Numbered from the stretch's first letter, positions 1,109-58,076 are shown. The stretch: DNA of 64,000 nt from an uncultured Candidatus Saccharibacteria bacterium (GCA_964446535.1 CAYUOR010000001.1:7283-71282); one strand, 5' to 3'. Notes: a model not told the origin generated them from the sequence alone. Numbers and translations are program-made.

Positions 1109-1618
1109 TTATCTAACCGTGAGAGTTCCCCACATACCCTGGGCTCTGTGACTACCTACGGAGCAGTAATATTCAAACGAACCCGCTTTATCGGCAACAA
1201 AAGTTATTGTCTCTGTTTGACCAGCACTCAAAATTTTGGTGGCTGCCCCGGAGAACTCGTCAATTCTAAGGTCGTGCGTACCGCCGGTATTTCTGAAAGT
1301 GATTTTTACCGTATCACCTTTATTGACGGTTAGAGTGGCTGGTTTAAAAGAAAGACGATCATTATCAATCGTAAATTCTTTCACCGTAGAAGCCTGGTTT
1401 GAGGCGGGTGTGGGCGAACTGGAAGTTGGTGTTGGTGCTTGTGGTTGAGACGATACCGCCTGTTCTTCAACGGTCATCTCTTCAACCGAGCTATCCCCTG
1501 CTGGCATGGCATTTTCAATTAGCCCATCGGTAGGGGCGGCGCTTTTATTTTTAAACAAAAAGAGGGCGCCGACAATAACCAAAACAACAACCAAAACAGC
1601 GGCCCATTTGTTATTCAT
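1109..1618 (-). CDS. Membrane-anchored cupredoxin (plastocyanin/azurin-like type-1 copper protein)
   Basis: N-terminal TM helix, then a Pro/Ser/Thr-rich linker, then a cupredoxin domain. Type-1 Cu ligands are His (GGTHDL), Cys-x2-His (YYCSVGSH) and Met (QGMWG). Stop at 1109-1111 abuts the GH130 stop. Confidence 0.75.
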   Translation of the reverse strand: MNNKWAAVLVVVLVIVGALFLFKNKSAAPTDGLIENAMPAGDSSVEEMTVEEQAVSSQPQAPTPTSSSPTPASNQASTVKEFTIDNDRLSFKPATLTVNKGDTVKITFRNTGGTHDLRIDEFSGAATKILSAGQTETITFVADKAGSFEYYCSVGSHRAQGMWGTLTVR

Positions 1619-1624
1619 AATGGA

Positions 1625-1630
1625 ATTATA
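1625..1630 (-). promoter_or_regulatory. TATAAT -10 hexamer 6 nt upstream of the cupredoxin ATG (leaderless-type promoter)
   Basis: Minus strand reads agcTATAATtccattATG. There is no SD. The hexamer lies within the 3' end of ftsX. Confidence 0.35.
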
Positions 1631-2564
1631 GCTTGAGATACTTTCTTATAGCAAGAGCGCTTGAGATGGCGCCAATTAAGACTCCAGAGCCGAGAATAAT
1701 TGCTGCAATTTGAAGGAAATAGTCAAGGTAATAAGAATAAATATTAAAACCGATAAAGAAACCTTCCGTGATATCGGCTAACCAATAAGTTATGGGTAAA
1801 AGAGCAAGAAGGGTTAAAACACCGGCCACTACGCCATAAATTACCCCCAGAACGACGAATGGCCCTTGGATATAGCGCGTAGAAGCGCCAACAAGGCGCA
1901 TAACGCTTATTTCATCCTTAGCTAGATAAATTGTGAGTCTAATGGTATTAAAGGCTATAAGGACCGAAATTACGGCAAAGAAGATGGTTAAGATAAGCCC
2001 TAATTTGTCTGCAGCTGAGATGACGTTCGTTAGTTTGTCTATGGCGGTTTTATTTTGGAAATAGTTAACCTTATCAACGATAGTAATACCCTCGGACGAG
2101 AGGGTGTCTCCGCTACCCAGAAAATCTGCCACAGAGGCATATTGAGCGGGATCCTTGGCTTTAATATTTAAAACCGCGCCCAGGGGGTTCTCACCAAGCT
2201 CGTCCAGGGCGGCAAGTATCGACTGATCATTGGCATGACGTTCTTTAAACTCGGCGAGAGCGGCATCGCGAGAAACGTAGGTGACGTGAGAGACCTCCTG
2301 AAGCGATTCTATTTCCTGTTTCAGACTAAGAATGTCTTCTTCTTTCGCTGTCGTGACAAAAGTTACGTTAATATCTATTTTACTCTTTAATTCCTCAAGA
2401 GTGGTGTCGAGAATAGCGCTTGAAAAGGATATGAGACCTATGACAAGAAGAGTCACCATCATAACAAGAACCGAAGCGAAGGAAACTGTGCCATCTCTCC
2501 AGAAATTGAAGAATCCGGTCCGCAGTACTCTCTTCAGTTTTGTTAAAAATATGGATTGCGTCAT
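1626..2564 (-). CDS. ftsX: Cell division permease FtsX
   Basis: 312 aa. N-terminal cytoplasmic segment, TM1, a large extracytoplasmic loop, then three C-terminal TM helices (FtsX fold). Overlaps ftsE by 4 nt. Confidence 0.85.
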   Translation of the reverse strand: MTQSIFLTKLKRVLRTGFFNFWRDGTVSFASVLVMMVTLLVIGLISFSSAILDTTLEELKSKIDINVTFVTTAKEEDILSLKQEIESLQEVSHVTYVSRDAALAEFKERHANDQSILAALDELGENPLGAVLNIKAKDPAQYASVADFLGSGDTLSSEGITIVDKVNYFQNKTAIDKLTNVISAADKLGLILTIFFAVISVLIAFNTIRLTIYLAKDEISVMRLVGASTRYIQGPFVVLGVIYGVVAGVLTLLALLPITYWLADITEGFFIGFNIYSYYLDYFLQIAAIILGSGVLIGAISSALAIRKYLKL

Positions 2565-3241
2565 ACGCTGTATCTGCCACTCTTGTCATCGCGAACCACC
2601 CTACCCTTCTCTATGGCGACAACTCGGCGTTTGAGTGAATCAATTATACCCTTGTTGTGAGTAGCGAGTATCACTGTTGTGCCAAGATTATTTATCTTCT
2701 TTAGAATCTGGACTACGTCATAAGTATTAGCCGGATCGAGGTTGCCGGTCGGCTCATCAGCGATAATTACTTCGGGATCATTTACCAGGGCTCTCGCTAT
2801 GGCCACCCTCTGTTTCTCTCCACCAGAGAGCTCGTGTGGGAAGTTCCAAATCTTAGAGGTAAGGTCAACAAGCTCAAGAACGTGGGGAACGTCGGCGTTA
2901 ATTTCCTCATCCGTTCTGCCTGCCGCCTCCATAGTGAAGGCGATATTCTCATACACAGTCTTATTCGGCAGAAGTCTGAAATCTTGAAAAACCATACCCA
3001 CATTTCTACGAAAAACATCCATTTGTTTCTTGCTCAAGGTGTGAATATTGACGGAATCATAATAAACCGCCCCTTGGCTGGGTTTTTCTTCTGCTAGGAA
3101 AAGTTTAAGAAGAGTTGTTTTCCCCGCTCCAGACGGACCAACGATGGAAACAAACTCCTGGGGTTCTATAGAGAGCGTCACGTCTTCTAGGGCGACGGAG
3201 TTATCCGGATATACTTTTGAGACGCGGTCAAAGATAATCAT
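2561..3241 (-). CDS. ftsE: Cell division ABC ATPase FtsE
   Basis: Walker [13 protein letters not shown] signature LSGGEKQR, Walker [13 protein letters not shown]-loop. 226 aa. Confidence 0.9.
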
Positions 3242-3300
3242 TTAGCGTAATTCTATCACGTGTGAATTGGCTCAACAAGAAATATGTTATATTACTAACC

Positions 3301-3894
3301 ATGAAAAAAGAAATTTTAGTGCTTATAGCCATAGTGGCAGTTGGTGTAATCTTGTTTCTTGGTGCGGGTGCCTCAGAAAAAGAAAGGGGTGCGAGCCGAG
3401 ATTTGTCTTCAACAATAAAATCGTTTTCTCTTTTTGGCGATAATTTGAAGAATTCCGAGACAGCAAGCGCTGTTGCCTGGGAATCTTTTGACGCCTACAT
3501 GGAGGCCGCCAAGACTCATAACCTAGAAACTCTTAGAGGTCTATCTTATAAGCTTTCTCCGGCCTGCCTTGATTCTGCAAGAGAGGAAGAGTGTTTTGCT
3601 CTTATGGACAGTGTCTACACGATAGCAAGCTCTCTTGATAAATCTGGCTTCAGACATATAGAGTTCGACAGGAAGCAGATTGTCATGTGGACAGACGGAC
3701 CTGGAGTAGCGATACTCTATTTCACAAGAGAGGGGCGAGAGAAGCCGAAGATTCTTGGCTTACAGTTCTGTCTGGAACTTGAAGAGGGTGACCCGTGTGT
3801 TAAACAAGAGCTTCTTAAAAATGACGAGAACGGCAACGGCTGGTGGGATAGAGTCGAAGAGCTTATAAATGAGCCCGCTCCTGCTAGCCAATAA
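3301..3894 (+). CDS. Hypothetical membrane-anchored/secreted protein
   Basis: Signal-anchor MKKEILVLIAIVAVGVILFLGAGAS; no recognizable domain. An alternative GTG start lies at 3262. Confidence 0.45.
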   Translation: MKKEILVLIAIVAVGVILFLGAGASEKERGASRDLSSTIKSFSLFGDNLKNSETASAVAWESFDAYMEAAKTHNLETLRGLSYKLSPACLDSAREEECFALMDSVYTIASSLDKSGFRHIEFDRKQIVMWTDGPGVAILYFTREGREKPKILGLQFCLELEEGDPCVKQELLKNDENGNGWWDRVEELINEPAPASQ

Positions 3895-4894
3895 TTATTT
3901 CGGGGAAAAGATAGTTTTTCGCGGCGTAGAAAAGTATTAATACAAGGACAAAGAGTGTTGCCACGTAGGCAATGTGTTTCGGGTGTTGGCGTCTTGGTTC
4001 TACCACTAAAAGTAACACTAAGGCGATAAGAACAATGGCGCCAAGAATAACATAGGCGAATTCAAGCATGGTCTTTGGTGAGGAAAGAGCTTTGTCCACA
4101 GCCGAAGTTTCTTTACTGACGCCCACCTCATTATCTTCTAAGACTTCCGACAATGCATAATCACTGTTCTGAACAGCTATAAATTGTTCATTTTCCGTGA
4201 GCACTTCAACATTTTCAGATAAAACTTCTACGCTTGATTCATTCGAATTTACGGCAATTTGACTACTATCATTCGGGGTGGTCGCTGGCTCCGCTGATTC
4301 TGCGGTTGTAGCTAGGACTGCTGTGCGCTTTGGTGCCGGCCGACCAAAGAGCTGGACAACATAGATAGTCTCGCGTCCGTTGTAGTAGCCCGGAGCCATG
4401 GCGATACCTATTTCGGTAAACTTATCATTCATAATATTGGCCCTGTGGCCTTCGGAATTCATCCAGGCAAGAACCACATCAGAGGAGTCGTTGAAATTGA
4501 CTGCCAGATTTTCCCCGGCGTAAAGAAATTCATATCCACCCTCTTTAAACCAGTACCACGGACTCCTACCCTCCGGACTCGTGTGGGCAAAGTAGCTCTT
4601 TGACGCCATGTCATTTGCTTTCAGCTGAGCGGCGTAAGCAAGGGTTTCATTTTGTACAAGAGGCGCAATATTCTGGTTGATTCGATTAGAGTTTGTCAGA
4701 TCAACAAGAACAGAAGTAATAACTGCCGAAAGGAGGCCGGGATGACGGGTTACGTATGAATTTAGAAAAAATGCGAGGTTGAATATCGCGATCGCCAGAA
4801 GAGCGAAAACGACAACATTCTTACCGCGGGCGAAGTGTGGTTTGTAGTCGTTACCTTCGTGTGGGACAAAGTGATTTTTCAACCTCCTTCTCAT
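3884..4894 (-). CDS. CAP/SCP/PR1-like domain protein with N- and C-terminal TM segments
   Basis: CAP-domain motifs (YFAHTSPEGRSPWYWFKEGGY...GENLA...WMNSEGHRANIM), an acidic S/E-rich linker, and a C-terminal TM helix. The ATG is preceded by the extended -10 tgTGaTATAAT with 9 nt to the ATG. Confidence 0.7.
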   Translation of the reverse strand: MRRRLKNHFVPHEGNDYKPHFARGKNVVVFALLAIAIFNLAFFLNSYVTRHPGLLSAVITSVLVDLTNSNRINQNIAPLVQNETLAYAAQLKANDMASKSYFAHTSPEGRSPWYWFKEGGYEFLYAGENLAVNFNDSSDVVLAWMNSEGHRANIMNDKFTEIGIAMAPGYYNGRETIYVVQLFGRPAPKRTAVLATTAESAEPATTPNDSSQIAVNSNESSVEVLSENVEVLTENEQFIAVQNSDYALSEVLEDNEVGVSKETSAVDKALSSPKTMLEFAYVILGAIVLIALVLLLVVEPRRQHPKHIAYVATLFVLVLILFYAAKNYLFPEIIIG

Positions 4895-4903
4895 TTCTGG
4901 AAG

Positions 4904-4912
4904 ATTATATCA
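4904..4912 (-). promoter_or_regulatory. Extended -10 (TGaTATAAT) 9 nt upstream of the CAP-domain gene ATG; leaderless-type
   Basis: Minus strand reads tgTGaTATAATcttccagaaATG. Confidence 0.35.
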
Positions 4913-9596: not shown

Positions 9597-10914
9597 CAAG
9601 CATCTTAATTCTAGCGCCCAGTTTATTAAGCCGGCCGACTATATTTTCGTAACCCCTATTTATCGCATAAACACCTCTTAAGGTTGAGCGTCCCTTAGCG
9701 CCAAGCATAGCCACTAGAAGCATGACCGCGGGACGAAGAGCGGGCGGACAAACGATCTGTGCGCCACGAAGTTTGGTCGGCCCTTCCACAAAAACTCTGT
9801 GTGAATCCGCGAGTTTAACGGAAGCACCTAGGCGGTTCAGTTCGGTAAAAAAGACTGCTCTATCCTCCCACATCCAGTCGTGAATAAGAGTGGAACCTTC
9901 TGCTTGTGTCGCTATCGGTACGAAAAACGGCAAGTTGTCGGTATTAATCCCGGGGTACGGCATGGCGTGGATCTTATCCGAGAGGGCCTTAAGCTTTGAG
10001 GGTCCTATTGTTATATCAACCAGTTTAGTTTTTTTGTTTTTGGACAAATATGTTTTGGAAATTGAAAATTTCTGCCCCATCCTTTCAAGCTTCATAAGTT
10101 CTAGTTTTAGGAAATCTATCGGCGCTCTTTTAATTAAGAGCTTCGAGTTGGTCATGATGGCTGCTGTGATGAAAAACATGGCTTCTATCGGATCTTCGGA
10201 GTTGTAATATTCAATACTTTTTTCAATATTTGGATTGCCGTGAATAACAAGGGTCTTTGTGCCTGTTCCTTCTATTTTTATGCCTAAAAGAGAGAGGAAG
10301 TGGCAAACCTCAAGAGTCATGTAATTTTGCTGTGCGAAGTCTATCGTTGTCTTCTGTGGTAAGAGCGCGGCGCGGAGCACGGCATTTGTTGTGCCGGTGT
10401 CCGATGCTTCATACATTATGATTTCTTTTCTCGATGGTCTTACTCTTTTGATCTCGTAGTAATTTTCTTTTGTAACAATCTTGAGACCTAGGTCTTCGAG
10501 GGCGAAACGGTGCGCGGCGATAGTCCTCTCCCCCATCTTGCATCCGCCAATGTGCGGAAACTTAAATTTTCCAAGGCGCGCCGAAAGCGGTCCTATAAGC
10601 ATAAGGGCGGAGCGAATTTTACCCGTAGAACGAGTGTTTATCTTATTAAGAGAAAACTTCTTCGGCGGAGTAATACTGATAGAGTGTTTATCGAGCCAAA
10701 CCACTTTTACTCCAATACTCTTAAGCACTTCAAGAAGACGATTAACATCTTCTATTCTCGGAATATTATGAAGAATAGTTACCCCCCTATTGACAAGAGA
10801 TGCGGCAAGAAGCTGTGTAGCTCCATTCTTTGAAGCATTTATGTTGATAGAGCCACGAAGCTTGTGCCCTCCTTCTATCTCAAAGTTGTCCCTTTCTTCC
10901 TGCCAAGGCTTCAT
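9592..10914 (-). CDS. murA: UDP-N-acetylglucosamine 1-carboxyvinyltransferase
   Basis: 440 aa EPSP-synthase-fold enzyme with conserved MurA segments (KNGATQLLAASLV; catalytic Cys in the loop PHIGGCKMGER). A TATAGT hexamer sits 8 nt upstream of the ATG. Confidence 0.9.
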   Translation of the reverse strand: MKPWQEERDNFEIEGGHKLRGSININASKNGATQLLAASLVNRGVTILHNIPRIEDVNRLLEVLKSIGVKVVWLDKHSISITPPKKFSLNKINTRSTGKIRSALMLIGPLSARLGKFKFPHIGGCKMGERTIAAHRFALEDLGLKIVTKENYYEIKRVRPSRKEIIMYEASDTGTTNAVLRAALLPQKTTIDFAQQNYMTLEVCHFLSLLGIKIEGTGTKTLVIHGNPNIEKSIEYYNSEDPIEAMFFITAAIMTNSKLLIKRAPIDFLKLELMKLERMGQKFSISKTYLSKNKKTKLVDITIGPSKLKALSDKIHAMPYPGINTDNLPFFVPIATQAEGSTLIHDWMWEDRAVFFTELNRLGASVKLADSHRVFVEGPTKLRGAQIVCPPALRPAVMLLVAMLGAKGRSTLRGVYAINRGYENIVGRLNKLGARIKMLE

Positions 10915-10922
10915 AAGGCGTA

Positions 10923-10928
10923 ACTATA
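10923..10928 (-). promoter_or_regulatory. TATAGT -10 hexamer 8 nt upstream of the murA ATG (leaderless-type)
   Basis: Minus strand reads gctATAGTTacgccttATG. Confidence 0.3.
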
Positions 10929-10941
10929 GCACGACGATGAG

Positions 10942-11376
10942 CTAGGTAGCTCTTGAATCTTTAACACTCTTGAAGCCGAGAACGGCAAGGGCAAATATCT
11001 GAACGATGTGGTCGTCAAATATCGGATTGTGCTCCGGCGGGATGGCGGCAAAGTAAATAAGAAGCATTATGAGTGCACCAGAAAGAGCGCCCCAGGGAAC
11101 GAGTCTATTAGCAAGAAGTGTCACGCCGGTACCCAAAAGCCCCAGCATAAAGAGCCAATCAACAAGGGGGTTTCCGGCCATGTTCTGGAAAATTTCTGCG
11201 AAAGGTCCTCTGGTGCCGTGAGTTAGAAAACCAAATGTTGGCGAAGCGCCGTTTACCCAGGCGTTTGCCCTCTCGGTTGCGTAACCGAGACCTAGTAGCT
11301 TATCTAGAAAAGCCCAAAGAAACATTACTCCTAACACAACTCTTAAACCGACCCAAGCAAATTTTTCTGTGTTCAT
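10942..11376 (-). CDS. DoxX family membrane protein
   Basis: 144 aa, 4 TM helices; the DoxX pattern W.LR..LG..FL..G..K. Confidence 0.7.
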   Translation of the reverse strand: MNTEKFAWVGLRVVLGVMFLWAFLDKLLGLGYATERANAWVNGASPTFGFLTHGTRGPFAEIFQNMAGNPLVDWLFMLGLLGTGVTLLANRLVPWGALSGALIMLLIYFAAIPPEHNPIFDDHIVQIFALAVLGFKSVKDSRAT

Positions 11377-11420
11377 ACGCTACTTATTCTACTCCCCTTG
11401 CGTGTTAGAATTATCAACAT

Positions 11421-11840
11421 ATGATCTGGGTTACATATGCACTTTTAGCAGCCTTTTTCGCCGCTCTTGTAGCTATTTTTTCGAAAGTTGGACTGAAAAA
11501 CGTAGATACGACATTAGCCACAACCGTGCGCGCCGTCGTCATGGCAACACTCCTTTTGGGCGCAGCACTTTTCTTAGGTAAAATGCCTCTTCTAAAGACG
11601 ATTGATAACCAGGCTCTCGCATTTATAATCTTCAGTGGTATTGCCGGCGCGCTTTCTTGGCTTTTTTATTTCCTGGCGCTTAAAACTGGCCCTGTTGATG
11701 GTGTTGCCGCGCTTGACCGATTGGGTGTTGTTTTTGTCGTAGTCCTTGCGGCATTATTTTTAGGAGAAGCTATAACTATAAAATCGTTTATTGGACTTAT
11801 TCTTATTATCTTGGGCGCCTTCCTTCTCGTCTTTAAATAA
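11421..11840 (+). CDS. EamA-like (DMT superfamily) small membrane protein, single 4-TM EamA domain
   Basis: 139 aa, four TM helices, EamA-type motifs (IFSKVGLK; GEAITIKSFIGLILIILGAFLL). Confidence 0.6.
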   Translation: MIWVTYALLAAFFAALVAIFSKVGLKNVDTTLATTVRAVVMATLLLGAALFLGKMPLLKTIDNQALAFIIFSGIAGALSWLFYFLALKTGPVDGVAALDRLGVVFVVVLAALFLGEAITIKSFIGLILIILGAFLLVFK

Positions 11841-15775: not shown

Positions 15776-16140
15776 AGTTCTTTTAGATATTTCCAGAATA
15801 CTAGAGCGCCGACTATCACGGCGACAGCAGATGAGAGCAATACCGCGCCCGCGGCAACATCTTTCGTATCTCTGGCATGGGGGTGATACTCGGGAGAGAC
15901 GAGTTCAGTATATTTTTCCAAGGCGGTGTTAAAAGCCTCAGTTACAAGCACCAGTCCGGCGGCAAAGATTACAAGCGTCCACTCGAGAGCTGTAATCTTG
16001 AAGTAAATACCGAAGATAATTACTGCGAGAAGAATTAGGAGCTCTATCCAGGCATTGTGTGTTGTTTTGAGAAATAAGCTTAGTCCGCGGATTGCATGAA
16101 CAAAACTCTTTGCGCGTTTATAGAACGAGAATTCTTCCAT
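15772..16140 (-). CDS. dgkA: Diacylglycerol kinase / undecaprenol kinase (DgkA family)
   Basis: 122 aa, 3 TM helices, DgkA motifs (LVLVTEAFNTALE; KDVAAGAVLLSS). Overlaps the upstream gene by 4 nt. Confidence 0.7.
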   Translation of the reverse strand: MEEFSFYKRAKSFVHAIRGLSLFLKTTHNAWIELLILLAVIIFGIYFKITALEWTLVIFAAGLVLVTEAFNTALEKYTELVSPEYHPHARDTKDVAAGAVLLSSAVAVIVGALVFWKYLKEL

Positions 16141-16202
16141 GGATATGATTATAACCGAAATTGCTTTATAATTTAATTTATTAAAAGGGTAAAAAAATAA
16201 AT

Positions 16203-46670: not shown

Positions 46671-47405
46671 CTACTTCAAGTGTCGCCTGACGCACTTGGC
46701 GACTTCCATCCTCCACTCATTGAACTTCGTTGTGTCGATGTCGGCGAGAAGATTGCGAGGGGGCGCTTTGATGATGAGGCGCCTGTGTCGCCGGTTGCAA
46801 TCTATCCGATAATGCTTCGGAAGATGCACCATCATCTTGTTAAGTTTGATGAATGCGTCTTCGTGCCCGACATCGGCCTGCTTCCTTAGGGGAACAACAT
46901 TCTGATACTCGCCAGAGAGATAATCAGTAGGAAGCGCTCGCTTCAAGATCGTATCGAGGTCGGCGTGAGTGCGGACGAAGACGAGACGAATGCCGAGCCT
47001 TCTGCACATCGTGCGTAGGGCTCGACGATCGTGGGCCTCGATAAGATCCGAGTCGATCACCGCATTGCCGCCGAGATGAATGATGCCCAAGGCGACGATT
47101 CTCAAAATGTCGTTACCTCCCTCGTAACTTGCGTGACGACGGCGAAGCTCGAGACAGATTTCATCATGAGCAAGAACTGTGCCGCCGATATGTTCAGCGA
47201 ACTCTCGGGCGACGGCACTCTTGCCGGAACCGGTAAGTCCGAGCATGCCGACGATAACCGGCTCTTCGGTCAAACGTACTCTTGGAGAAAGTTTCCTCGC
47301 GAAAGCTCTGGCGGCGGCACCTTCACGTTTGTTTGGAAGCTTCTGATCCGAGAGCTGAATGCTCGGGGCTATTTCGTCCCTGAAAAGTCGTAACTGCTTC
47401 GTCAT
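46671..47405 (-). CDS. P-loop NTPase/kinase of uncertain specificity (AAA_33/zeta-toxin-like fold)
   Basis: Walker A GLTGSGKS, Arg-rich. Higher GC than the surroundings. Confidence 0.5.
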   Translation of the reverse strand: MTKQLRLFRDEIAPSIQLSDQKLPNKREGAAARAFARKLSPRVRLTEEPVIVGMLGLTGSGKSAVAREFAEHIGGTVLAHDEICLELRRRHASYEGGNDILRIVALGIIHLGGNAVIDSDLIEAHDRRALRTMCRRLGIRLVFVRTHADLDTILKRALPTDYLSGEYQNVVPLRKQADVGHEDAFIKLNKMMVHLPKHYRIDCNRRHRRLIIKAPPRNLLADIDTTKFNEWRMEVAKCVRRHLK

Positions 47406-47515
47406 GACTCACCTCCTTTGCGTTCAAATTACAATTCTTCGGCTACGCTAACATAAGCGTCAAGCGAGAGTCAAATAAAAATTCCCCGACAGAGATTCCT
47501 GTCGGGGATGTGGCT

Positions 47516-47854: not shown

Positions 47855-48295
47855 TCAAGCTGGAACGAGCCCTGGATTCTTGGCGGCTTTTTGTAAAACT
47901 TTTTTGAGTTCAGTGAGGTTCAGATCTTCAAGTTTTTTAAATCGGATACAGCTTCGGCCGACACTGACTTTGCCTGCCTGCGCAGGCAGGCCGAGTTTTT
48001 TCGCGTGTTTTTCCGCCAGATACTCCCCTTTCTCAAGGGCGCAAACATAAATTGAAATATAGTTTTTCTGGCTGGCAAGCGCCACGATTGGCCAGTCAAT
48101 TATTTTCTTCGCGTAATTTTTATATTTGAAACTGCCATAGCCGAGCATGTTGTAGGCAAAATGGGGTTTAAGTTTCGGTGCTGATTTTTGGATAAACTTG
48201 TGCAGGAAATTTATCGCCTCTTTGCGCTCCTTTGGAACAGATGAGAGATATTCCGATACACTTTTAGCCTTCACCTTTTTAAACATATTTCCCAT
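47855..48295 (-). CDS. DUF1801 (YdhG/YjbR-like) domain protein
   Basis: VSEYLSSVPKERKEAINFLHKFI...YNMLGYG matches the DUF1801 pattern. The CDS contains the 20-bp palindrome. Confidence 0.55.
   Translation of the reverse strand: MGNMFKKVKAKSVSEYLSSVPKERKEAINFLHKFIQKSAPKLKPHFAYNMLGYGSFKYKNYAKKIIDWPIVALASQKNYISIYVCALEKGEYLAEKHAKKLGLPAQAGKVSVGRSCIRFKKLEDLNLTELKKVLQKAAKNPGLVPA
47972..47991. repeat. Perfect 20-bp palindrome GCCTGCCTGCGCAGGCAGGC, copy 2 (inside the DUF1801 CDS)
   Basis: Shares 19 nt with 42688..42706. Encodes ...GLPAQAGKV... on the minus strand. Confidence 0.5.
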
Positions 48296-48361
48296 ACATT
48301 GTTATTATAGACCTGTAATCTTTTTGCAAGAAGCCGTTTTTTCCTTTAGAATTCCCCTATT

Positions 48362-48445
48362 GCGTCGGTGGCGGAGTGGTCAATCGCAACAGACTGTAAA
48401 TCTGTCGGCCTTAGGTCTACGCAGGTTCGAATCCTGCCCGGCGCA
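48362..48445 (+). tRNA. tRNA-Tyr (anticodon GUA)
   Basis: 84 nt type-II: GCGTCGGTGGCGGAGTGGTCAATCGCAACAGACTGTAAATCTGTCGGCCTTAGGTCTACGCAGGTTCGAATCCTGCCCGGCGCA. Long variable arm. Confidence 0.85.
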
Positions 48446-48454
48446 CAAAGTTGT

Positions 48455-51130
48455 TTATTGTAGAACCGGTTCTTTGCTTATGACAACCGTAGAAGCCGAG
48501 CCGGAGCGGCGGCTCTTCTTAATATCAAACGTAAATTGATTATCTTTAACATCAACCGAGACCGTTCCGCCGGAAAGCACTTTATTCGTAATCATCATTG
48601 ACGCAATGGGGTTGAGAATTTTGTCTTGAATCAGGCGTTTCAGAGGACGGGCACCATATTGCGGGTTATAGCCGTCACGTGAAAGAAGTTCAAGAACTTG
48701 ATCAGAAACCTTTAGTGTAATTTCCTTATCCAGTAATCGTTTTTTGACTATATCAATCTGGATACCGACAATTTCTTTTATAGCTTCTTTTGAAAGGACG
48801 TCGAAGATGACAATATCGTCAAGGCGGTTAAGAAACTCCGGTCGGAAATGTTCTTTAAGAGCGGAAAGAACTTTTTCCTTAACATTAGTGTAGTCATCCT
48901 TTTCACCATCGGAGAACCCGATTGACTGCATTTTATCTATAAACTGGGCGCCGATATTCGAGGTCATGATTATAATCGTGTTTTTGAAATTTATGGTTCT
49001 GCCCTTGGCATCCGTGAGGCGGCCGTTATCTAAGATTTGGAGAAGGACGTTAAAGACCTCCGGGTGCGCCTTCTCAATCTCGTCAAAAAGGACGACGGAG
49101 TAAGGTCTGTGTCTGACCGATTCGGCGAAGGTTGAGCCCTCTTCAAAGCCGACATAGCCAGGCGGAGCGCCTATGAGCTTTGAGACAGAGTGCTTCTCCA
49201 TAAACTCCGACATATCAACGCGGATAAGCGCTTTCTCGTCGTCGAACATAAATTCGGCAAGCGCTTTTGTAAGCTCGGTCTTCCCTACTCCCGTGGGACC
49301 GAGGAAAATGAACGAGCCGATTGGGCGATTCGGATCAGAGATTCCTGCGCGAGAACGCTTGACCGTGTCGCTGATTTTCCCGACCGCTTCATCCTGGCCG
49401 ATAATTCGTTTCTTGAGAAATTCTTCTATCCTTGAGAGTTTCACCGCCTCCTCTTCGAGCATTCGCGATACGGGTATGCCCGTCCAGCGACTGACGACAA
49501 GAGCTATATCCTGGGCAGTAATTTCTTCTTTCAAGAGGCGCCTCGGGCCTTGTAACTTTTTCAGACGCTTGGCTTTGATATCAAGTTCTTTTTCAAGACT
49601 CGGGATTTTGCCGTAGCGAAGTTCAGCCGCACGGGAAAGGTCTGCCTTGGCCTCGGCTGACTCGGCTTCCAGTCGCATTGATTCCAAACTTTTCTTAATA
49701 TTTTTTATATCGCCGACAGTTTCCTTTTCATTTCGCCATTTAAGCTCGGTCTCAGAAGTTTTTTCCCGCAGATCGGCAATCTCTTTGTCTATCACCTTGA
49801 GTCTTGTTTTAACTTTCTGACTCTTGGACTCTTTCTTGAGAGCCTCCTTCTCTATCTCGAGCTTCATTATTTTAGAATGAGTATCCTGAAGCACCGGAGG
49901 CATGTTCTCCAGAGAAATCTTTAAGAATGAGGCGGCTTCATCTATAAGATCCACCGCCTTGTCGGGCAGGAATCTGTCTGTGATATAGCGTGAAGAAAGG
50001 GTGACGGCCGCCCTTATGGCATCATCGGTGATACGAACGCCGTGGTAGAGCTCGTAGCGCTCTTTAAGCCCGCGGAGGATGGTCATGGCGTCTTCTACAG
50101 AGGGCTCCTGAACATAGACCGGTTGGAAACGGCGAGTTAGGGCTGGATCTTTTTCTATATGCTTTTGATATTCACGAAGAGTTGTGGCGCCGATAGCACG
50201 AAGCTCACCTCTGGCCAAAGAAGGTTTAAGCATGTTGGATGCATCCATAGAGCCCTCGGCGGCGCCGGCACCAACGATAGTATGAATCTCGTCTATGAAA
50301 AGAATAATTTTACCATCCGACTTCTCAACCTCTTTGATGATGTTTTTGAGTCGCTCTTCGAACTCTCCGCGATACTTCGTGCCCGCTATTAAAAGCCCGA
50401 TGTCGAGCGAGACAAGCTCTTTTTCTTTTAGCGACTCGGGAACATTGCCGGAAGCCATGCGGAGTGCCAGCCCTTCGGCAATGGCGGTTTTACCAACACC
50501 GGCTTCGCCGATAAGAATCGGATTATTCTTGGTTCGACGTGAGAGAATCTGGATTATGCGACTAACCTCGTCGTCACGACCGATAACGGGGTCGAGCTTA
50601 TTGGCCTTGGCCAGGGCGGTAAGAGAGCGGGCATATTTCGAGATGGCTTTAAATTTCTTGGCTTCTCGTTGTTCTACTGGACCCGCCTTCCTGATGTCTT
50701 CTATAACCTTAACAACCGTTTGCCTGTCAATCTTAAACTTCAAAAGAAGCTCTCTGGCATCGCTCGGAACTTCGAGTACCGCCAGAAAAAGGTGTTCGGT
50801 TGATACGAATTCATCGCCGAGAGATTGTGCAATCTTGGAACTTGATTCTATCGTGTGGGCGAGTTCGGGTGTCAGATATATCTGATAAGAGGGTGCGATG
50901 GTCTGACTTGTCTCGGAAGTTTCTATTGCTTCAAGGGCTGTGTCGGTAAGAAATACGCTGTCTATATTCATACGGTCGAGGATAGAAACCGTCATGCTCT
51001 CCTCCTGTATAAGAAGTGCCGCTAGGAGATGCGTTGGATTCACGTGATTCTGTCCACGCTCCATAGCAAGCTCGTGCGCCTTCCTGATAACCTCTTGTGC
51101 TTTAGTAGTAAAGTGTTTAAAAGGTTGCAT
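48455..51130 (-). CDS. clpB: Chaperone ClpB (Hsp104-type disaggregase)
   Basis: Clp N repeats, D1 [15 protein letters not shown], a long middle coiled-coil, D2 [20 protein letters not shown]. Start at the ATG 7 nt downstream of TAAAAT. The track ORF extends to 51166, overlapping the upstream gene. Confidence 0.9.
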
Positions 51131-51135
51131 TTGCC

Positions 51136-52326
51136 CTATTTTAACACGGAATTTGATACACGGCAAAATATTTCTGCTGCCCGCATGGCATCCCGACTTT
51201 TCGTCTCTCTACCGAAAGAAAATCTGATAGTCGCTGTCGCAAATTCTTCTCCTACTGTGGCACGAATGGTCGGAGAACCCTCTTCTCTTTCGTCGGTCGA
51301 GCAGGCGGTACCCGCCGAGGCAAGAACGCCAACTTTCTCCATCTTTATAACTATAAATTCCGCTAGAGCTCCTGGCACGGAAACACTCACTATGTTTGGC
51401 AAGCGACTGTCGACGGGGCCATTTATCAGGGCCTCGGGCAGATTTTTTCTAACGTAATCGACAAACTCTTTTCGCAAAATATCTAGACGCTTCGACTCCT
51501 TTTCTCGCTCAAGGGATGCAGTCTCAAGCGCTACAGTAAATCCAGAAATTAAAGCTGGGTTCTCGGTACCGGCTCGTCGACCATACTCCTGACTTCCGCC
51601 AAAAATAATCGGCCTGATTTTAACGTTTTTTCTTACAGCGAGAACTCCGATACCCTTCGGTCCATATATTTTGGCACCATCTATTGTTAGAAGATCGGTA
51701 TTTAGTTTCTCGAGTGAAATATCCAAATAATTCGGCGCCTGGCTTGCGTCGGTGTGGAGGAGCGGGTAGTCCTTGTCGTTTTCTCTACGAAATTCTTTGA
51801 CGATACGCCCTATTTTTGAAAGTTGTTGAATAACGCCAATCTCGGAGTTGGCATACCCTATAGAGACAAGAAAGGTGTTCTTTTTCAAAAGTTTTCGCAG
51901 AGCCTCCGGGTTAACTAATCCGTCTTTGCCGACCTTGAGAACACTCACCTCGCCGCCTCGACGACACACCTCTCTTGCCGCTTCTGCCACGGCGGGATGC
52001 TCTATCGCAGAAATTATTAAGTGCGGTTTCTTAAACTGCTCACTCGCGGCGCTGTACGCGCCGAGAATAGCTAGGTTATCGGACTCCGTACCACCAGAGG
52101 TAAAAATTATTCCCGAAGGAGCAATGCCCAGAATACGCGCGATGCGAACTCGCTTGTCTTCTACGTCTTTTTTTACCGAAAGGGCTTCCCTATAAACGGC
52201 AGAGGGATTGTAAAAATCCTTTGACCAATATTTTTTCATCGCCCTAAGTGCCTTGGGCAAAAGTGGCGTAGCCGATGCATAGTCTAGAAAAATTCTTTTC
52301 TTGGGAAACCAGTTCATCCCTGCCAT
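51136..52326 (-). CDS. Cysteine desulfurase (class V aminotransferase, IscS/NifS family)
   Basis: IFLDYASATPLL N-terminus, PLP-Lys region, catalytic Cys loop. The start may be the second ATG (52317), 9 nt downstream of a TATAGA hexamer. Confidence 0.85.
   Translation of the reverse strand: MAGMNWFPKKRIFLDYASATPLLPKALRAMKKYWSKDFYNPSAVYREALSVKKDVEDKRVRIARILGIAPSGIIFTSGGTESDNLAILGAYSAASEQFKKPHLIISAIEHPAVAEAAREVCRRGGEVSVLKVGKDGLVNPEALRKLLKKNTFLVSIGYANSEIGVIQQLSKIGRIVKEFRRENDKDYPLLHTDASQAPNYLDISLEKLNTDLLTIDGAKIYGPKGIGVLAVRKNVKIRPIIFGGSQEYGRRAGTENPALISGFTVALETASLEREKESKRLDILRKEFVDYVRKNLPEALINGPVDSRLPNIVSVSVPGALAEFIVIKMEKVGVLASAGTACSTDEREEGSPTIRATVGEEFATATIRFSFGRETKSRDAMRAAEIFCRVSNSVLK
51138..51143 (-). 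promoter_or_regulatory. TAAAAT -10 hexamer 7 nt upstream of the clpB ATG (leaderless-type)
   Basis: Minus strand reads gtgtTAAAATagggcaaATG. Confidence 0.3.
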
Positions 52327-52381
52327 TCTATATTTCAGGCGTGTTTTTGCAATATTTGTGTGGTATGGTTAAAACCTATTT

Positions 52382-55012: not shown

Positions 55013-55085
55013 TGCGCCCACGAGGATTCGAACCTCGGACCATCTCCTTAAGAGGGAGCTGCTCTACCAACTGAGCTATGGGCGC
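55013..55085 (-). tRNA. tRNA-Lys (anticodon CUU)
   Basis: GCGCCCATAGCTCAGTTGGTAGAGCAGCTCCCTCTTAAGGAGATGGTCCGAGGTTCGAATCCTCGTGGGCGCA. Confidence 0.85.
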
Positions 55086-55185
55086 TTGGAAATTAGAGTA
55101 TCACAGAAAGGCGGGTTTTTTTCAATTGTGATAAGGTAATATTCACGTCGGCTGTCTTATTTATTTCATAAAATAGGGCGCCAAC

Positions 55186-55257
55186 GGCGTAGTGGCGAAG
55201 TGGTAACGCTTTGGTCTGCAAAACCAACATGCAGGGGTTCGATTCCCCTCTACGCCT
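55186..55257 (+). tRNA. tRNA-Cys (anticodon GCA)
   Basis: GGCGTAGTGGCGAAGTGGTAACGCTTTGGTCTGCAAAACCAACATGCAGGGGTTCGATTCCCCTCTACGCCT, followed by an encoded CCA. Confidence 0.85.
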
Positions 55258-56638: not shown

Positions 56639-57393
56639 GATTTTGTTAGTTTAAGAAATACTTCTTCCAGTCGCCCGCCACGGTAACCCTCTTTTTTCTC
56701 TTCCCTATCGTGCAGTTTGATAATTTCTTCTACACTGCCTTTGGCAACAATCTCGCCCTTGTTGATTATCGCGATATCTCGGCAGAGCTGTTCGGCTTCT
56801 TCCAAGTAGTGGGTTGTGAGAAGTATGGTTAGCCCTTCTTTGGTAAGTGAGCGCAGGTAATCCCACATCCCTCGGCGGAGCTCCACATCCACCCCCGCCG
56901 TCGGCTCGTCAAGGACGAGAAATCGCGGCTCGTGAACCAGGGCGCGAGCAATCATCAAGCGCCGCTTCATCCCGCCCGAAAGCGTCATAGCACTCTGATC
57001 CATCTTCTCTCCTAGTCCAAGATCGGTTAAAACTCGCTTAGCGCGCGGTACGGCAAGAGATCTTGGAATGCCGTAGTAACCCGCCTGGTTCACAACAATG
57101 TCTAAAGGTTTTTCAAACGGATTAAAATTAACTTCCTGCCCCACGAGACCGATCTGGGCTTTCGCACGCTCGGGTTCTTTATCTATATCATGGCCGAAAA
57201 CTGTTACTTTACCGTCCGTCTTATTTACAAGCCCAGTGGCAATACCTATAAGGGTTGTTTTACCCGCCCCGTTAGGACCGAGAAGCCCGAAAAAGTCTCC
57301 TCGAGGTACTTCAAGTGAAACACCCTTGAGCGCCTCTGTGCCTGTCTTATATTTTTTCTTCAGATTTTCTACTTTGAGCGCGGGCAGATCCAT
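56635..57393 (-). CDS. ABC transporter ATP-binding protein
   Basis: Walker A GPNGAGKTT, signature LSGGMKRR, Walker B LVLDEPTAGVD. Start set at the internal ATG (MDLPALKV), since the track N-terminus overlaps the divergent gene. Confidence 0.8.
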   Translation of the reverse strand: MDLPALKVENLKKKYKTGTEALKGVSLEVPRGDFFGLLGPNGAGKTTLIGIATGLVNKTDGKVTVFGHDIDKEPERAKAQIGLVGQEVNFNPFEKPLDIVVNQAGYYGIPRSLAVPRAKRVLTDLGLGEKMDQSAMTLSGGMKRRLMIARALVHEPRFLVLDEPTAGVDVELRRGMWDYLRSLTKEGLTILLTTHYLEEAEQLCRDIAIINKGEIVAKGSVEEIIKLHDREEKKEGYRGGRLEEVFLKLTKS

Positions 57394-57439
57394 TGGTGAA
57401 AAGTTTTCGTATTCTATCACGATCCAGACTCTTGGGGCG

Positions 57440-57448
57440 TGGTATAAT
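57440..57448 (+). promoter_or_regulatory. Extended -10 (TGgTATAAT) 7 nt upstream of the TMEM175-like gene ATG (leaderless-type)
   Basis: cgTGgTATAATgtggaaaATGtca. Confidence 0.4.
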
Positions 57449-57455
57449 GTGGAAA

Positions 57456-58076
57456 ATGTCACATACAAGGTTAGACCAACTCTCCGACGGTATCTTTGCC
57501 ATAGTGATGACAATTCTCGTCTTCGAAATCAGGGTACCGGAGATTTATGGCACCTACACCAACCTTGGCTTATGGACCGAGGTGAAGGCGCTCCTGCCCA
57601 CTTTTTTGTCTTATTTATTATCGTTTGCCCTACTTTTCACCTATTGGCGCGCCCACCACTTCTTCATCTCAATTTATGCCAAAAATGTTGACCTGATGCT
57701 GACCAATATCAACGCCCTATTTTTCATGCTTATCTCTCTTATACCGTTTTCGGCAAGTTTTTTGGGTAAATATAATGAGAACGAAATTTCTGTCGCTATC
57801 TTTGGCATTCATATTATTCTCATCGGACTATCTCTATACTCTATGCGAAGCTACGTTCTCTATTCCGACCATATAAAAAATCCGGAGATCAGCCACCGCG
57901 AAATTCGCGGCTCAACTATCAGAACCATGATGCCCGTCATCTTCGCCGGTGTCGCTATCCCTCTTTCTTTCGTGAGCATTAACATTTCCTTGGTTGTCTT
58001 TACCCTGGCGGTGCTCTTTAACCTCTCTTCCGCTAGCACCAGAATCTTTGAAAGAATATTCAGGTTTGCCCATTAA
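57456..58076 (+). CDS. DUF1211 / TMEM175-like putative K+ channel
   Basis: N-terminal signature RLDQLSDGIFAIVMTILVFE matches the TMEM175 RxxxFSDGxFAIxxTLL motif; 6 TM helices. Confidence 0.6.
   Translation: MSHTRLDQLSDGIFAIVMTILVFEIRVPEIYGTYTNLGLWTEVKALLPTFLSYLLSFALLFTYWRAHHFFISIYAKNVDLMLTNINALFFMLISLIPFSASFLGKYNENEISVAIFGIHIILIGLSLYSMRSYVLYSDHIKNPEISHREIRGSTIRTMMPVIFAGVAIPLSFVSINISLVVFTLAVLFNLSSASTRIFERIFRFAH

Follow-up and report, generated by a model that had tools for sequence, protein, structure and literature searches.

About 40% of the genes in the window, the 64,000-nucleotide stretch of DNA analysed here, have a -10 box 6-9 nt 5' of the ATG start codon and no Shine-Dalgarno (SD) sequence. 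From the promoter geometry, the start codon is probably where the mRNAs of these boxed genes begin. The architecture is a known bacterial leaderless type (GeneMarkS-2 group C), found here in a little-studied lineage. A first-pass annotation had pointed to eleven such genes; that observation is confirmed and was an understatement, with 22 of 54 curated window genes of the leaderless type, the eleven listed earlier and 11 more. Judged by sequence similarity, the window genome is that of a member of the Parcubacteria (CPR / Minisyncoccota, class Minisyncoccia), ultra-small bacteria; the best serS matches, at 60-91% identity, are to MAGs labelled Minisyncoccia, Paceibacterota, Parcubacteria, Zambryskibacteria and Nomurabacteria.

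Genes with a -10 box next to the start codon

Ten of the eleven hexamers originally listed were exact on read-back. The other, given as TATAGA at 9 nt in the cysteine desulfurase gene, was misread, since TATAGA does not fit TAnnnT; the box is really TAGAAT at 7 nt. The eleven genes are:

1616..1633, minus strand: cupredoxin (Pfam), TATAAT 1625-1630, spacer 6 nt, ATG 1618
4892..4912, minus strand: CAP-domain gene (Pfam), TGaTATAAT 4904-4909, spacer 9 nt, ATG 4894
10912..10931, minus strand: murA (Pfam), TGcTATAGT 10923-10928, spacer 8 nt, ATG 10914
26413..26431, minus strand: dnaX, TATACT 26423-26428, spacer 7 nt, ATG 26415
32269..32289, minus strand: serS, TGaTATATT 32281-32286, spacer 9 nt, ATG 32271
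32275..32294, plus strand: dprA, TACAAT 32278-32283, spacer 8 nt, ATG 32292
37778..37795, minus strand: parB, TGaTAAAAT 37787-37792, spacer 6 nt, ATG 37780
37937..37955, plus strand: P-type ATPase, TATAAT 37940-37945, spacer 7 nt, ATG 37953
51128..51146, minus strand: clpB, TGtTAAAAT 51138-51143, spacer 7 nt, ATG 51130 (not TTG 51166)
52315..52333, minus strand: cysteine desulfurase, TAGAAT 52325-52330, spacer 7 nt, second ATG 52317
57440..57458, plus strand: TMEM175-like gene, TGgTATAAT 57443-57448, spacer 7 nt, ATG 57456

The absence of SD sequences at these genes, also claimed earlier, holds: duplex energies with ACCUCCUUU range from +2.2 to -4.2 kcal/mol, which signifies no meaningful SD. 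Several boxes are tightly embedded in their surroundings. The cupredoxin box includes the TAA that ends the upstream gene ftsX, the final T of the clpB box is the first base of the TAG stop of the cysteine desulfurase gene, and the dprA and serS boxes overlap on opposite strands inside a 20-bp intergenic region. The further leaderless-type genes, which include two divergent pairs, are:

3239..3258, minus strand: ftsE (ABC ATPase; Pfam), TGaTAGAAT 3250-3255, spacer 8 nt, ATG 3241
3285..3303, plus strand: 197-aa ORF, TGtTATATT 3288-3293, spacer 7 nt, ATG 3301; divergent from ftsE
11374..11394, minus strand: DoxX-like gene, TAGAAT 11386-11391, spacer 9 nt, ATG 11376
11403..11423, plus strand: EamA transporter, TGtTAGAAT 11406-11411, spacer 9 nt, ATG 11421; divergent from the DoxX-like gene
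16138..16156, minus strand: diacylglycerol kinase (DAGK; Pfam), TATAAT 16148-16153, spacer 7 nt, ATG 16140
17928..17948, minus strand: MBL-fold hydrolase, TATAAT 17940-17945, spacer 9 nt, ATG 17930
19663..19681, minus strand: 176-aa ORF, TGtGATAAT 19673-19678, spacer 7 nt, ATG 19665; a weaker box
22848..22865, minus strand: META-domain gene, TAGGAT 22857-22862, spacer 6 nt, ATG 22850; the weakest box, 4.6 bits
23296..23313, minus strand: DUF1428 gene, TAAGAT 23305-23310, spacer 6 nt, ATG 23298
30151..30171, minus strand: 128-aa ORF, TGaTACAAT 30163-30168, spacer 9 nt, ATG 30153
48293..48312, minus strand: DUF1801 gene, TATAAT 48304-48309, spacer 8 nt, ATG 48295

Statistical excess of the boxes

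Gene starts were assigned by the first-ATG rule, and a strong -10 box was defined as a PWM score of 5 bits or more with a spacer of 6-9 nt. Such a match is found at 20 of 60 first-ATG ORF starts and at 28 of 1440 other ATGs (1.9%; Fisher p = 3e-17). No PWM matches occur at spacers 4, 5 or 10 among the 60 starts. A genome-wide comparison of the hexamer-ATG spacing with a shuffled background had been named in advance as one test of the pattern. The window is enriched: the 20 boxes observed compare with 3.2±1.7, and a maximum of 9, in 1000 local shuffles of the upstream 40 nt that preserve dinucleotides. The loose motif TAnnnT has 1861 occurrences across the window, and a scan anchored on the motif is noisy and almost without a peak; anchored at gene starts, it gives 20 observed versus 7.0±2.4 shuffled. 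Spacers in the window are spread out without a peak at 6 nt (6 nt, 3 genes; 7 nt, 6; 8 nt, 4; 9 nt, 7), and thus several transcripts may carry leaders of 1-3 nt. The proposal that transcripts start at or near the start codon is supported at the sequence level, with spacers of 8-9 nt implying such 1-3 nt leaders.

Promoter identity of the hexamers

Several properties support the hexamers as sigma-70-type -10 elements, with transcription predicted to start at the ATG or within about 3 nt of it. T1, A2 and T6 of the box are invariant, matching the sigma-70 consensus. An extended -10 sequence (TRTGn), which was unselected, is strongly enriched in the window, where G-4, T-3 and G-2 are each found in 14 of 23 sites. 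Among 315 clade promoters, T (66%) and G (59%) predominate at -15/-14 over backgrounds of 27% and 23%, and there is a weak TTG at -35 that prefers 17-bp spacing (37 vs about 14). The -1 position is a pyrimidine in 75% versus 60% (p = 6e-6) and G in 4% versus 10%. Only ATG is enriched downstream of the box; GTG, TTG and CTG show neither enrichment nor a peak. Matching boxes are also found 9-11 nt 5' of mature tRNA 5' ends:

37891..37906, minus strand: tRNA-Leu(CAA) promoter, TATATT 37901-37906, 9 nt to the mature 5' end
41525..41542, plus strand: tRNA-Trp promoter, TGgTAGGAT 41525-41530, 11 nt to the mature 5' end
48347..48362, plus strand: tRNA-Tyr promoter, TAGAAT 48347-48352, 9 nt to the mature 5' end
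55085..55100, minus strand: tRNA-Lys promoter, TGaTACTCT 55095-55100, 9 nt to the mature 5' end
55169..55186, plus strand: tRNA-Cys promoter, TAAAAT 55169-55174, 11 nt to the mature 5' end

The distribution of boxes follows gene arrangement, with a box at 13 of 23 genes that have a divergent upstream neighbour versus 2 of 11 tightly coupled operon-internal genes. Some boxes (cupredoxin, clpB, dnaX, murA) are just 5-27 nt past a same-strand upstream gene, and therefore read-through transcripts could also carry those genes. A class-IV aminotransferase gene provides a short-leader contrast. Its promoter was also found by a generic -35/-10 scan of positions 25000-44999, the sole promoter of an examined gene so recovered:

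42663..42708, minus strand: class-IV aminotransferase promoter, TTGCCT-16-TATAAT, box 42681-42686, 15 nt to ATG 42665

Start codons

Start codons later than the longest reading frames had been suggested for dnaX, clpB, an ABC ATPase and the TMEM175-like gene, and the sequence data support all four. Close dnaX orthologues share the ATG of the window gene. Counted from ATG 51130, the N-terminus of ClpB is about as long as that of the E. coli protein. The ABC_tran domain of the ABC ATPase begins at residue 62 from TTG 57513 and at about residue 22 from ATG 57393. Its promoter lies 17 nt upstream, so this gene would have a short leader and is not leaderless:

57391..57419, minus strand: ABC ATPase promoter, TGaTAGAAT 57411-57416, 17 nt to ATG 57393

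The first in-frame ATG of the TMEM175-like gene (57447) consists of the end of the box plus a G and so is within the -10 box; the first ATG of the cysteine desulfurase gene (52326) likewise overlaps its box. In other genes the Pfam domains lie close to the proposed N-terminus, with DprA beginning at residue 5, Toprim at residue 6, ParB_N at residue 11 and Cation_ATPase_N at residue 9.

Shine-Dalgarno sites

In only five of the 54 curated genes is the SD duplex at least as stable as -7 kcal/mol. The lack of an SD is a trait of nearly all window genes and not just of the leaderless ones. About half of the genes have neither box nor SD, and thus the leaderless model does not account for all initiation. 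The earlier suggestion that canonical SDs are a property of higher-GC genes agrees with the data: strong SDs are confined to about 8-11 genes, whose mean GC3 is 0.61 vs 0.47. Examples are:

17099..17114, minus strand: 130-aa ORF, GGAGGTGG, 3 nt to ATG 17101; GC3 0.61
19768..19785, plus strand: fatty-acid desaturase, TAAGGAGA, 6 nt to ATG 19783; GC3 0.63
21695..21710, minus strand: Cys-rich small ORF, AAAAAGGAGG, 4 nt to ATG 21697; GC3 0.66
23987..24004, minus strand: Cys-rich small ORF, AAAGGAGGTG, 5 nt to TTG 23989
47403..47420, minus strand: AAA_33 gene, AAAGGAGGTG, 5 nt to ATG 47405; GC3 0.61

Across 1.2 Mb of relatives, SD motifs are not concentrated at any position upstream of starts. An anti-SD motif has been detected in just 48% of Parcubacteria (PMC9297842). 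In the literature, no paper was found on a leaderless -10/ATG architecture in Parcubacteria, a group reported to have lost the anti-SD motif in part.

Conservation in related genomes

The box signal is clade-wide across 80 related loci, yet gene-specific. These genomes have a median GC of 45% (range 31-64%). When hexamer-to-ATG distances are tabulated over the 80 loci and the window (1100 ORFs), there are 164 matches at 6 nt, 52 at 7, 48 at 8 and 54 at 9, over a background of about 15. In the relatives the commonest spacing is exactly 6 nt, which is the canonical -10 to +1 distance, and about 29% of clade ORFs fit the leaderless pattern. Once the serS start region is masked, an ATG follows at 6-9 nt in 108 of the 253 occurrences of TGnTAnAAT in the related loci, and 99 of these 108 ATGs open ORFs of at least 80 codons.

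Starts were checked against orthologues for the genes that lie no more than 10 kb from serS. Whether or not a gene has the box is conserved across its orthologues, and the spacer sequence drifts. A box scoring 5 bits or more at spacer 6-9 is found in 22 of 26 dnaX orthologues (among those listed, mostly TATACT at 6-7 nt) and in 35 of 47 parB orthologues (among those listed, mostly TGnTAAAAT at 6 nt). Boxes are also present in 34 of 61 orthologues of dprA, 35 of 78 of serS, 5 of 5 of the 128-aa ORF and 3 of 3 of the P-type ATPase; the serS start codon is aligned in 78 of 78. Other genes have few or none (dus, 0/64; topA, 2/60; miaA, 1/33; relA, 0/6).

Alternative explanations

SD sequences are nearly absent, so some non-SD initiation signal must exist, and the hexamers might act on leadered mRNAs that start further upstream, either in SD-independent binding of the ribosome or as an unstructured 'standby' element, as in the Bacteroidota-like group B of GeneMarkS-2. 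The many boxes right after a same-strand gene, where read-through transcripts are plausible, fit this explanation. It is nevertheless quite improbable. The fit of the motif to the sigma-70 -10 consensus with its three invariant positions, the TRTG extension upstream and the occurrence of boxes 5' of tRNA genes, which are untranslated, all argue for promoters. Furthermore, the group B motif precedes all genes (PMC6028130), whereas boxes are rare at operon-internal genes. The modal 6 nt equals the distance from -10 to +1, and a -1 pyrimidine suits transcription start-site selection.

Slightly less probable still is that the boxes are real promoters and translation starts downstream of the annotated ATGs, which would leave ordinary leaders. 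The starts did come from the first-ATG rule, and some dnaX and dprA orthologues have their nearest ATG several codons away. Yet the serS ATG is residue 1 in all 78 orthologues, 92 of the 108 ATGs 6-9 nt past TGnTAnAAT in relatives are the first ATG in an ORF of 80 codons or more, and Pfam domains start only a few residues into the proteins as proposed. Downstream, neither an SD nor any other signal was found, and the precise 6-nt peak would be left unexplained. A purely compositional origin, by which AT-rich intergenic DNA and upstream TAA/TAG stops yield chance TAnnnT near ATG, was tested by the shuffles and rejected; its likelihood is negligible. The abundance of loose TAnnnT with almost no motif-anchored peak, and the two boxes that overlap upstream stop codons (cupredoxin, clpB), are what such an origin would give, but the lack of matches at spacers 4, 5 and 10 is not. 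In addition, enrichment is highest where the upstream neighbour is divergent and no stop codon lies close by, and composition cannot give an extended -10 or conservation between orthologues.

Relation to known systems

Group C is recognized by a TAnnnT Pribnow box at a fixed short distance from the start of many first-in-operon genes, without an SD, and about 25-60% of transcripts are predicted to be leaderless (PMC6028130). Group C members in the Actinobacteria (e.g. Mycobacterium tuberculosis) and Deinococcus-Thermus (e.g. D. deserti) share with the window the short-range -10 box and lack of an SD, which here characterize 22 of 54 genes. Known group C genomes with code 11 nearly all have a high GC content (bioRxiv 10.1101/2022.07.25.500264), unlike this clade. 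Leadered and internal genes have SDs in group C and mostly none in the window and clade. The prominent extended -10 TRTG and nearly absent -35 also set the clade apart. In addition, ATG alone follows the box here, whereas mycobacterial leaderless genes use GTG too.

The Mollicutes/Mycoplasma members of group C (code 4, low GC) resemble this lineage in their reduced genomes and low or moderate GC, and 30-60% of their transcripts are predicted to be leaderless (bioRxiv 10.1101/2022.07.25.500264). They are an unrelated lineage, and TGA is a stop codon here, as seen from the long ORFs under code 11. Mycoplasma genomes retain an RBS model (bioRxiv 10.1101/2022.07.25.500264), whereas an SD signal is undetectable in these related loci. 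With the Bacteroidota-type group B there is a likeness in the very low genome-wide SD usage; however, group B mRNAs have leaders, and every gene, operon-internal or not, is preceded by a non-SD motif (PMC6028130), and the element here is a -10 box that is rare internally and also found at tRNA genes.

Extended -10 promoters share the sequence TRTGnTAtAaT and a weak or dispensable -35. The extended -10 'TGn', or Gram-positive '-16 region' TRTG, is a sigma-A/sigma-70 promoter motif. Unlike in ordinary promoters of this type, the element here is tied to a position 6-9 nt from the ATG, and in many cases it falls within a neighbouring gene, at the 3' end of the one before it or the 5' end of a divergent one. 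Archaeal group D also has promoters placed such that the mRNA starts at the start codon, but archaea use a TATA/BRE box about 26 nt upstream and a different polymerase system; here there is a bacterial -10 at 6-9 nt.

Proposed mode of initiation

The motif, its position, statistical excess, promoter-like properties and clade conservation are established here, and from these we infer the actual transcription start and the mode of ribosome recruitment. For leaderless expression, a housekeeping sigma-70-type RNA polymerase would read the extended -10 (consensus T-R-T-G-n-T-A-t-A-a-T), the -35 being vestigial. The +1, about 7 nt past the box, would be the A of the ATG at spacers of 6-7 nt, or 1-3 nt upstream of it at spacers of 8-9 nt. 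A transcript beginning at or near the ATG has no room for an SD, and thus the 5'-terminal AUG would be bound directly by the ribosome and initiator tRNA. Operon-internal genes, with neither box nor SD, abut the upstream stop codon (ATGA overlaps or gaps of 1-6 nt), and this tight packing suggests termination-reinitiation coupling. A small set of higher-GC genes, probably acquired, retains canonical SD sites. In this Parcubacteria genome, the first gene of a transcription unit is very probably expressed by default as a leaderless or nearly leaderless mRNA.

A -10 hexamer at a short distance from start codons

The 40 nt upstream of each candidate start in the window were inspected. The first-pass annotation had named eleven genes in which a -10 hexamer (hereafter the box) ends 6-9 nt before the ATG and no Shine-Dalgarno (SD) sequence is present. 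Ten of the 11 match exactly in hexamer, TG extension and spacer, the last being the number of nucleotides between box and start codon. For cysteine desulfurase, a box does precede the second ATG (52317), but the proposed hexamer, TATAGA, does not fit TAnnnT; a 2-nt shift gives TAGAAT with a spacer of 7. None of the eleven has an SD; the duplex energy of the 18 upstream nucleotides with ACCUCCUUU ranges from +2.2 to -4.2 kcal/mol. Pfam confirms the gene names cupredoxin, CAP, MurA, DnaX, DprA, ParB, P-type ATPase, ClpB, class-V aminotransferase (cysteine desulfurase) and TMEM175. The observation can be extended to eleven additional genes with the same layout: ftsE, ORF 3301, DoxX-like, EamA, DAGK, MBL, ORF 19665, META, DUF1428, ORF 30153 and DUF1801. 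These leaderless-type genes, so termed from promoter geometry, number 22 of the 54 curated window genes, and all 22 start with ATG.

Starts were also chosen blind to the motif, as the first ATG of each non-overlapping open reading frame of at least 80 codons, with a box match defined as a -10 weight matrix score of at least 5 bits. In the window, a box at spacer 6-9 is found at 20 of 60 such starts and at 28 of 1440 other ATGs (odds ratio 25, p = 3e-17). The mean number of matches per position is 5.0 at spacers 6-9 versus 0.94 at spacers 10-40, and the 60 starts show zero matches at spacers 4, 5 or 10. In a motif-anchored count without gene calls, 13 TGnTAnnnT sites in the window have, 6-9 nt downstream, an ATG that opens a frame of at least 80 codons, where about one is expected. 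The loose TAnnnT shows no visible motif-anchored peak because it is too frequent (1861 sites in the window and 37,099 in the related loci described below); only stricter motifs or gene-anchored tests are informative.

Spacers of 6, 7, 8 and 9 nt occur in 3, 6, 4 and 7 window genes. This distribution is broader than that in relatives, and therefore some transcripts may carry leaders of 1-3 nt. Such leaders still qualify under the usual operational cut-off for leaderless mRNAs, a leader of at most 5 nt.

Conservation in related genomes

The window has a GC content of 42-50%, very tight gene packing and nine tRNA genes. The best matches to its SerS protein are in 80 metagenome-assembled genomes (MAGs), at 60-91% identity, whose labels read Minisyncoccia, Paceibacterota, Parcubacteria, Zambryskibacteria, Nomurabacteria, Kaiserbacteria or 'Patescibacteria group'. 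In the NCBI taxonomy, Minisyncoccia belongs to the phylum Minisyncoccota (formerly CPR/Patescibacteria). The 80 loci around these serS orthologues total 1.2 Mb with a median GC of 45%.

Among 1100 first-ATG open reading frames from loci and window, box matches of at least 5 bits at spacers 6, 7, 8 and 9 number 164, 52, 48 and 54, against a background of about 15 per position. Leaderless-type genes make up approximately 29% of this set and genes with a strong SD approximately 4%. The modal spacer in the clade is exactly 6 nt, which is the canonical distance from the last -10 base to +1. A pyrimidine is found at -1 in 75% of leaderless-type starts versus 60% of others (p = 6e-6), and G in 4% versus 10%. 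This bias at -1 is in keeping with the preference of bacterial RNA polymerase for a pyrimidine at -1 and a purine at +1, with the A of the ATG as the presumed +1.

The box is gene-specific and is kept across orthologues, while the spacer sequence drifts. It is frequent in orthologues of dnaX (22/26), parB (35/47), dprA (34/61), serS (35/78), a 128-aa open reading frame (5/5) and the P-type ATPase (3/3). It is rare or absent in those of dus (0/64), topA (2/60), miaA (1/33) and relA (0/6).

At 33173-33195 in the window, topA lacks a consensus box. It has TGTAGTACT or TGTAATACT about 7-11 nt before the ATG, and this element is kept in many orthologues among the 80 loci. The element points to a promoter of the extended -10 kind that is weaker and leaves a leader of very few nucleotides.

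The box as an extended -10 promoter element

Four independent sequence properties indicate that the hexamers are promoter -10 elements and not a translation signal. With sites selected on the hexamer only, G, T and G are each found in 14 of 23 window sites at positions -4, -3 and -2 of the box. In 315 clade promoters selected in the same way, T is present in 56% at -17 and in 66% at -15, and G in 59% at -14. The consensus is TRTGnTAtAaT. The -35 signal in these 315 promoters is a faint TTG with a preferred 17-bp spacing; positions -35 to -33 hold only 0.06-0.14 bits, and matches to TTGACA of at least 4/6 at 17 bp number 37 versus about 14. The elements thus have the features of extended -10 sigma-70/sigma-A promoters, namely TG at -15/-14 and a weak or absent -35. 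A generic two-hexamer -35/-10 scan of 25000-44999 gave 35 sites versus 23.2±4.0 and missed the leaderless-type promoters because these have no -35.

The location of the box follows transcription units. Of the 23 window genes whose upstream neighbour is divergent, 13 have it, as do 9 of the 15 that follow a same-strand gene after 7 nt or more. Among the 11 genes that overlap the gene before them or are no more than 6 nt from it, only 2 have a box. The motif is therefore on first genes of transcription units and not on operon-internal genes. At spacer 6 after TGnTAnAAT the codon is ATG in 69 cases, GTG in 3, TTG in 0 and CTG in 1; the enrichment is for ATG only. The box is also found 9-11 nt before the mature 5' end of five tRNAs:

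37891, minus strand, tRNA-Leu
48362, plus strand, tRNA-Tyr
41542, plus strand, tRNA-Trp
55186, plus strand, tRNA-Cys
55085, minus strand, tRNA-Lys

At this distance, RNase P would have to remove about 2-5 nt from the 5' end of each primary tRNA transcript.

Other explanations of the box-to-ATG spacing have been considered. The spacing could be an artefact of base composition, but dinucleotide-preserving shuffles of the 40-nt upstream regions give 3.2±1.7 box starts, with a maximum of 9 in 1000, compared with the 20 observed. Composition is therefore rejected. Systematic misassignment of start codons could also place an ATG next to a hexamer. Once the serS start region is masked, the loci hold 253 occurrences of TGnTAnAAT, and 108 of them have an ATG 6-9 nt downstream; 99 of these ATGs open frames of at least 80 codons, and for 92 the frame has no earlier ATG. 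In addition, the serS ATG is residue 1 in the alignment of 78 of 78 testable orthologues, and misassignment is rejected. The remaining candidate is a non-SD ribosome-binding motif on leadered mRNAs, similar to that of GeneMarkS-2 group B (Bacteroidota-like), which is found before every gene, operon-internal genes included, and is not a promoter. Here the motif is rare before internal genes, it precedes tRNA genes and it has promoter features, and this candidate is rejected as well. The sequence statistics and comparative genomics support the leaderless interpretation, with transcription start sites predicted from promoter geometry.

Shine-Dalgarno sequences and operon-internal genes

An SD duplex energy of -7 kcal/mol or stronger is found in only 5 of 54 window genes. 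When small open reading frames are included, strong, well-spaced SDs of the AAAGGAGGTG type precede the genes for three Cys-rich peptides that are paralogues, for an AAA_33 kinase-like protein and for a fatty-acid desaturase, together with a HAD gene and a few short open reading frames. As first proposed, the SD genes are higher in GC, with a mean GC of 0.51 and GC3 of 0.61 versus 0.46 and 0.47 for leaderless-type genes. Composition suggests that the SD-led, higher-GC genes arrived together with their SDs. The Cys-rich paralogues encode small proteins of 66-71 aa:

21497-21697, minus strand, Cys-rich small protein
21815-22018, minus strand, Cys-rich small protein
23774-23989, minus strand, Cys-rich small protein

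They are 36-48% identical, and the motifs G-H-x-Y, C-x3-C-G-C and F-G-x-C-P-x-N are invariant among them. All three have a strong SD and a high GC3 of 0.57-0.75, unlike the neighbouring leaderless-type genes.

In the 1.2 Mb of relatives, the SD motifs GGAGG, AGGAG, AAGGA and GGAG show no positional peak before starts, only codon periodicity. AAGGAGG/AGGAGGT is followed by an ATG at 3-9 nt in 56 of 367 sites, which is approximately chance. The few strong, well-spaced SDs hint that the anti-SD may be intact in the organism of the window. Rfam finds no rRNA gene in the window, and approximate matching of the conserved 16S 3' block against the window and the full set of 80 loci yielded spurious matches only.

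Upstream of the 128-aa open reading frame (30163-30178, minus strand), AGGAGGTG overlaps the TRTG part of the extended -10 (AGGAGGTGaTACAAT). With 17 nt between it and the ATG, it is too distant to serve as an SD.

Operon-internal genes have neither box nor SD. In four cases without an SD, the start overlaps the upstream stop codon:

2561-2564, ATGA overlap
15772-15775, ATGA overlap
29767-29770, ATGA overlap
56635-56638, ATGA overlap

Seven further operon-internal genes start 1-6 nt past the upstream stop. This layout suggests SD-independent termination-reinitiation coupling. Leadered and internal genes outside the leaderless-type set thus do not carry SD-type ribosome-binding sites as a rule, and therefore the architecture is leaderless plus largely SD-free, unlike textbook group C.

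Start codons and compact promoters

The first-pass annotation had favoured later ATGs for several genes, and these choices are supported. The dnaX start is common to close orthologues. Translation of clpB from ATG 51130 gives an N-terminus about as long as that of E. coli ClpB, and Clp_N matches are present. In the second ABC ATPase (minus strand), ATG 57393 is favoured, since a start at TTG 57513 would put the beginning of the ABC_tran domain at residue 62; the box of this gene, TGaTAGAAT, is 17 nt upstream of ATG 57393 and the gene therefore has a short leader. In both TMEM175 and cysteine desulfurase, the two final bases of the box together with the G that follows make up the first ATG. These first ATGs, built from the box, would therefore be outside the transcript. 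A TAnAAT box followed by G makes an ATG, and with a spacer of 7 the result is an in-frame decoy 9 nt upstream of the real start:

52317-52330, cysteine desulfurase, decoy ATG 52326, real ATG 52317
57443-57458, TMEM175, decoy ATG 57447, real ATG 57456

In this lineage, such decoys can systematically mislead gene callers. If the leaderless reading holds, starts in CPR MAGs could be called as the ATG 6-9 nt past TRTGnTAnAAT. The rule corrects four window starts, those of clpB, cysteine desulfurase, the second ABC ATPase and TMEM175.

The start codons of serS (32271, minus strand) and dprA (32292, plus strand) are divergent and 20 bp apart, separated by TTGCTATACAATATATCACA. The serS box (32281-32286, minus strand) and the dprA box (32278-32283, plus strand) overlap on opposite strands, and therefore the extended -10 and -35 of each sit in or against the other gene. 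This layout is kept in five of the related loci (L001, L003, L005, L018 and L020) and is similar to the symmetric bidirectional promoters reported in other bacteria. On the same strand, the ftsX TAA stop lies inside the cupredoxin TATAAT (1625-1630), and, at 51136-51143, the cysteine desulfurase TAG stop begins with the last T of the clpB TAAAAT. Leaderless initiation, if it holds, would explain the shrinkage of the serS/dprA intergenic region to 20 bp and the presence of promoters inside neighbouring coding sequences.

Two further features were observed. A GC-rich perfect palindrome, GCCTGCCTGCGCAGGCAGGC (42688-42709), lies directly against the TATAAT in the promoter of the class-IV aminotransferase gene, between this gene and the divergent epimerase gene with which it shares the intergenic region. 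It could be a bidirectional terminator or operator. The infB gene (52382-53893, plus strand) encodes an IF2 of only 503 aa with the GTPase domain from residue 18, and therefore without the long N-terminal region of E. coli IF2. IF2 favours leaderless initiation, and the short form may bear on this process.

Relation to known systems and significance

Leaderless initiation is usually taught for Actinobacteria, Deinococcus-Thermus, some Mollicutes and archaea. In GeneMarkS-2 group C, a Pribnow box is found at a fixed short distance before starts, only in first genes of operons; members are Actinobacteria, Deinococcus-Thermus and some others, and 25-50% of their transcripts are leaderless (PMC6028130). 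Within group C, nearly all genomes that use code 11 are high in GC, and the low-GC examples are code-4 Mycoplasma (MetaGeneMark-2 preprint). The window and the clade share with group C a sharply localised Pribnow-type -10 and a predicted 5'-terminal AUG. The Parcubacteria clade differs in that it has mid to low GC with code 11, the extended -10 is dominant and SDs are near-absent even on leadered genes.

Tsurumaki et al. (2022) report the anti-SD motif in only 48% of Parcubacteria and do not mention leaderless mRNAs (PMC9297842). An incomplete literature search, which can offer absence of evidence only, found incidental mentions (YchF, reference lists) and no paper describing leaderless architecture in CPR/Parcubacteria. 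No new mechanism is revealed; the system is of a known type, apparently undescribed so far in this lineage.

Perhaps SD-independent, mainly leaderless initiation is the default across a class-level CPR lineage and is linked to anti-SD loss, a proposal to which we give somewhat less than an even chance. The lineage meant is the Parcubacteria / Paceibacteria-like Minisyncoccia, with a median GC of about 45% and the standard code. If the proposal is true, leaderless expression from an extended -10 fixed 6 nt from the ATG would apply to about a third of genes overall and to over half of those that come first in an operon, and the other genes would use stop-start coupling or very short leaders. A mid/low-GC, code-11 lineage would join the leaderless-dominated Actinobacteria, Deinococcus-Thermus and Mollicutes, and CPR MAGs would gain a simple start-codon correction rule. 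The architecture would also be the missing functional counterpart of the anti-SD loss reported in about half of Parcubacteria (PMC9297842). Leaderless initiation would then be the main initiation route of a large, uncultivated, genome-reduced bacterial radiation.
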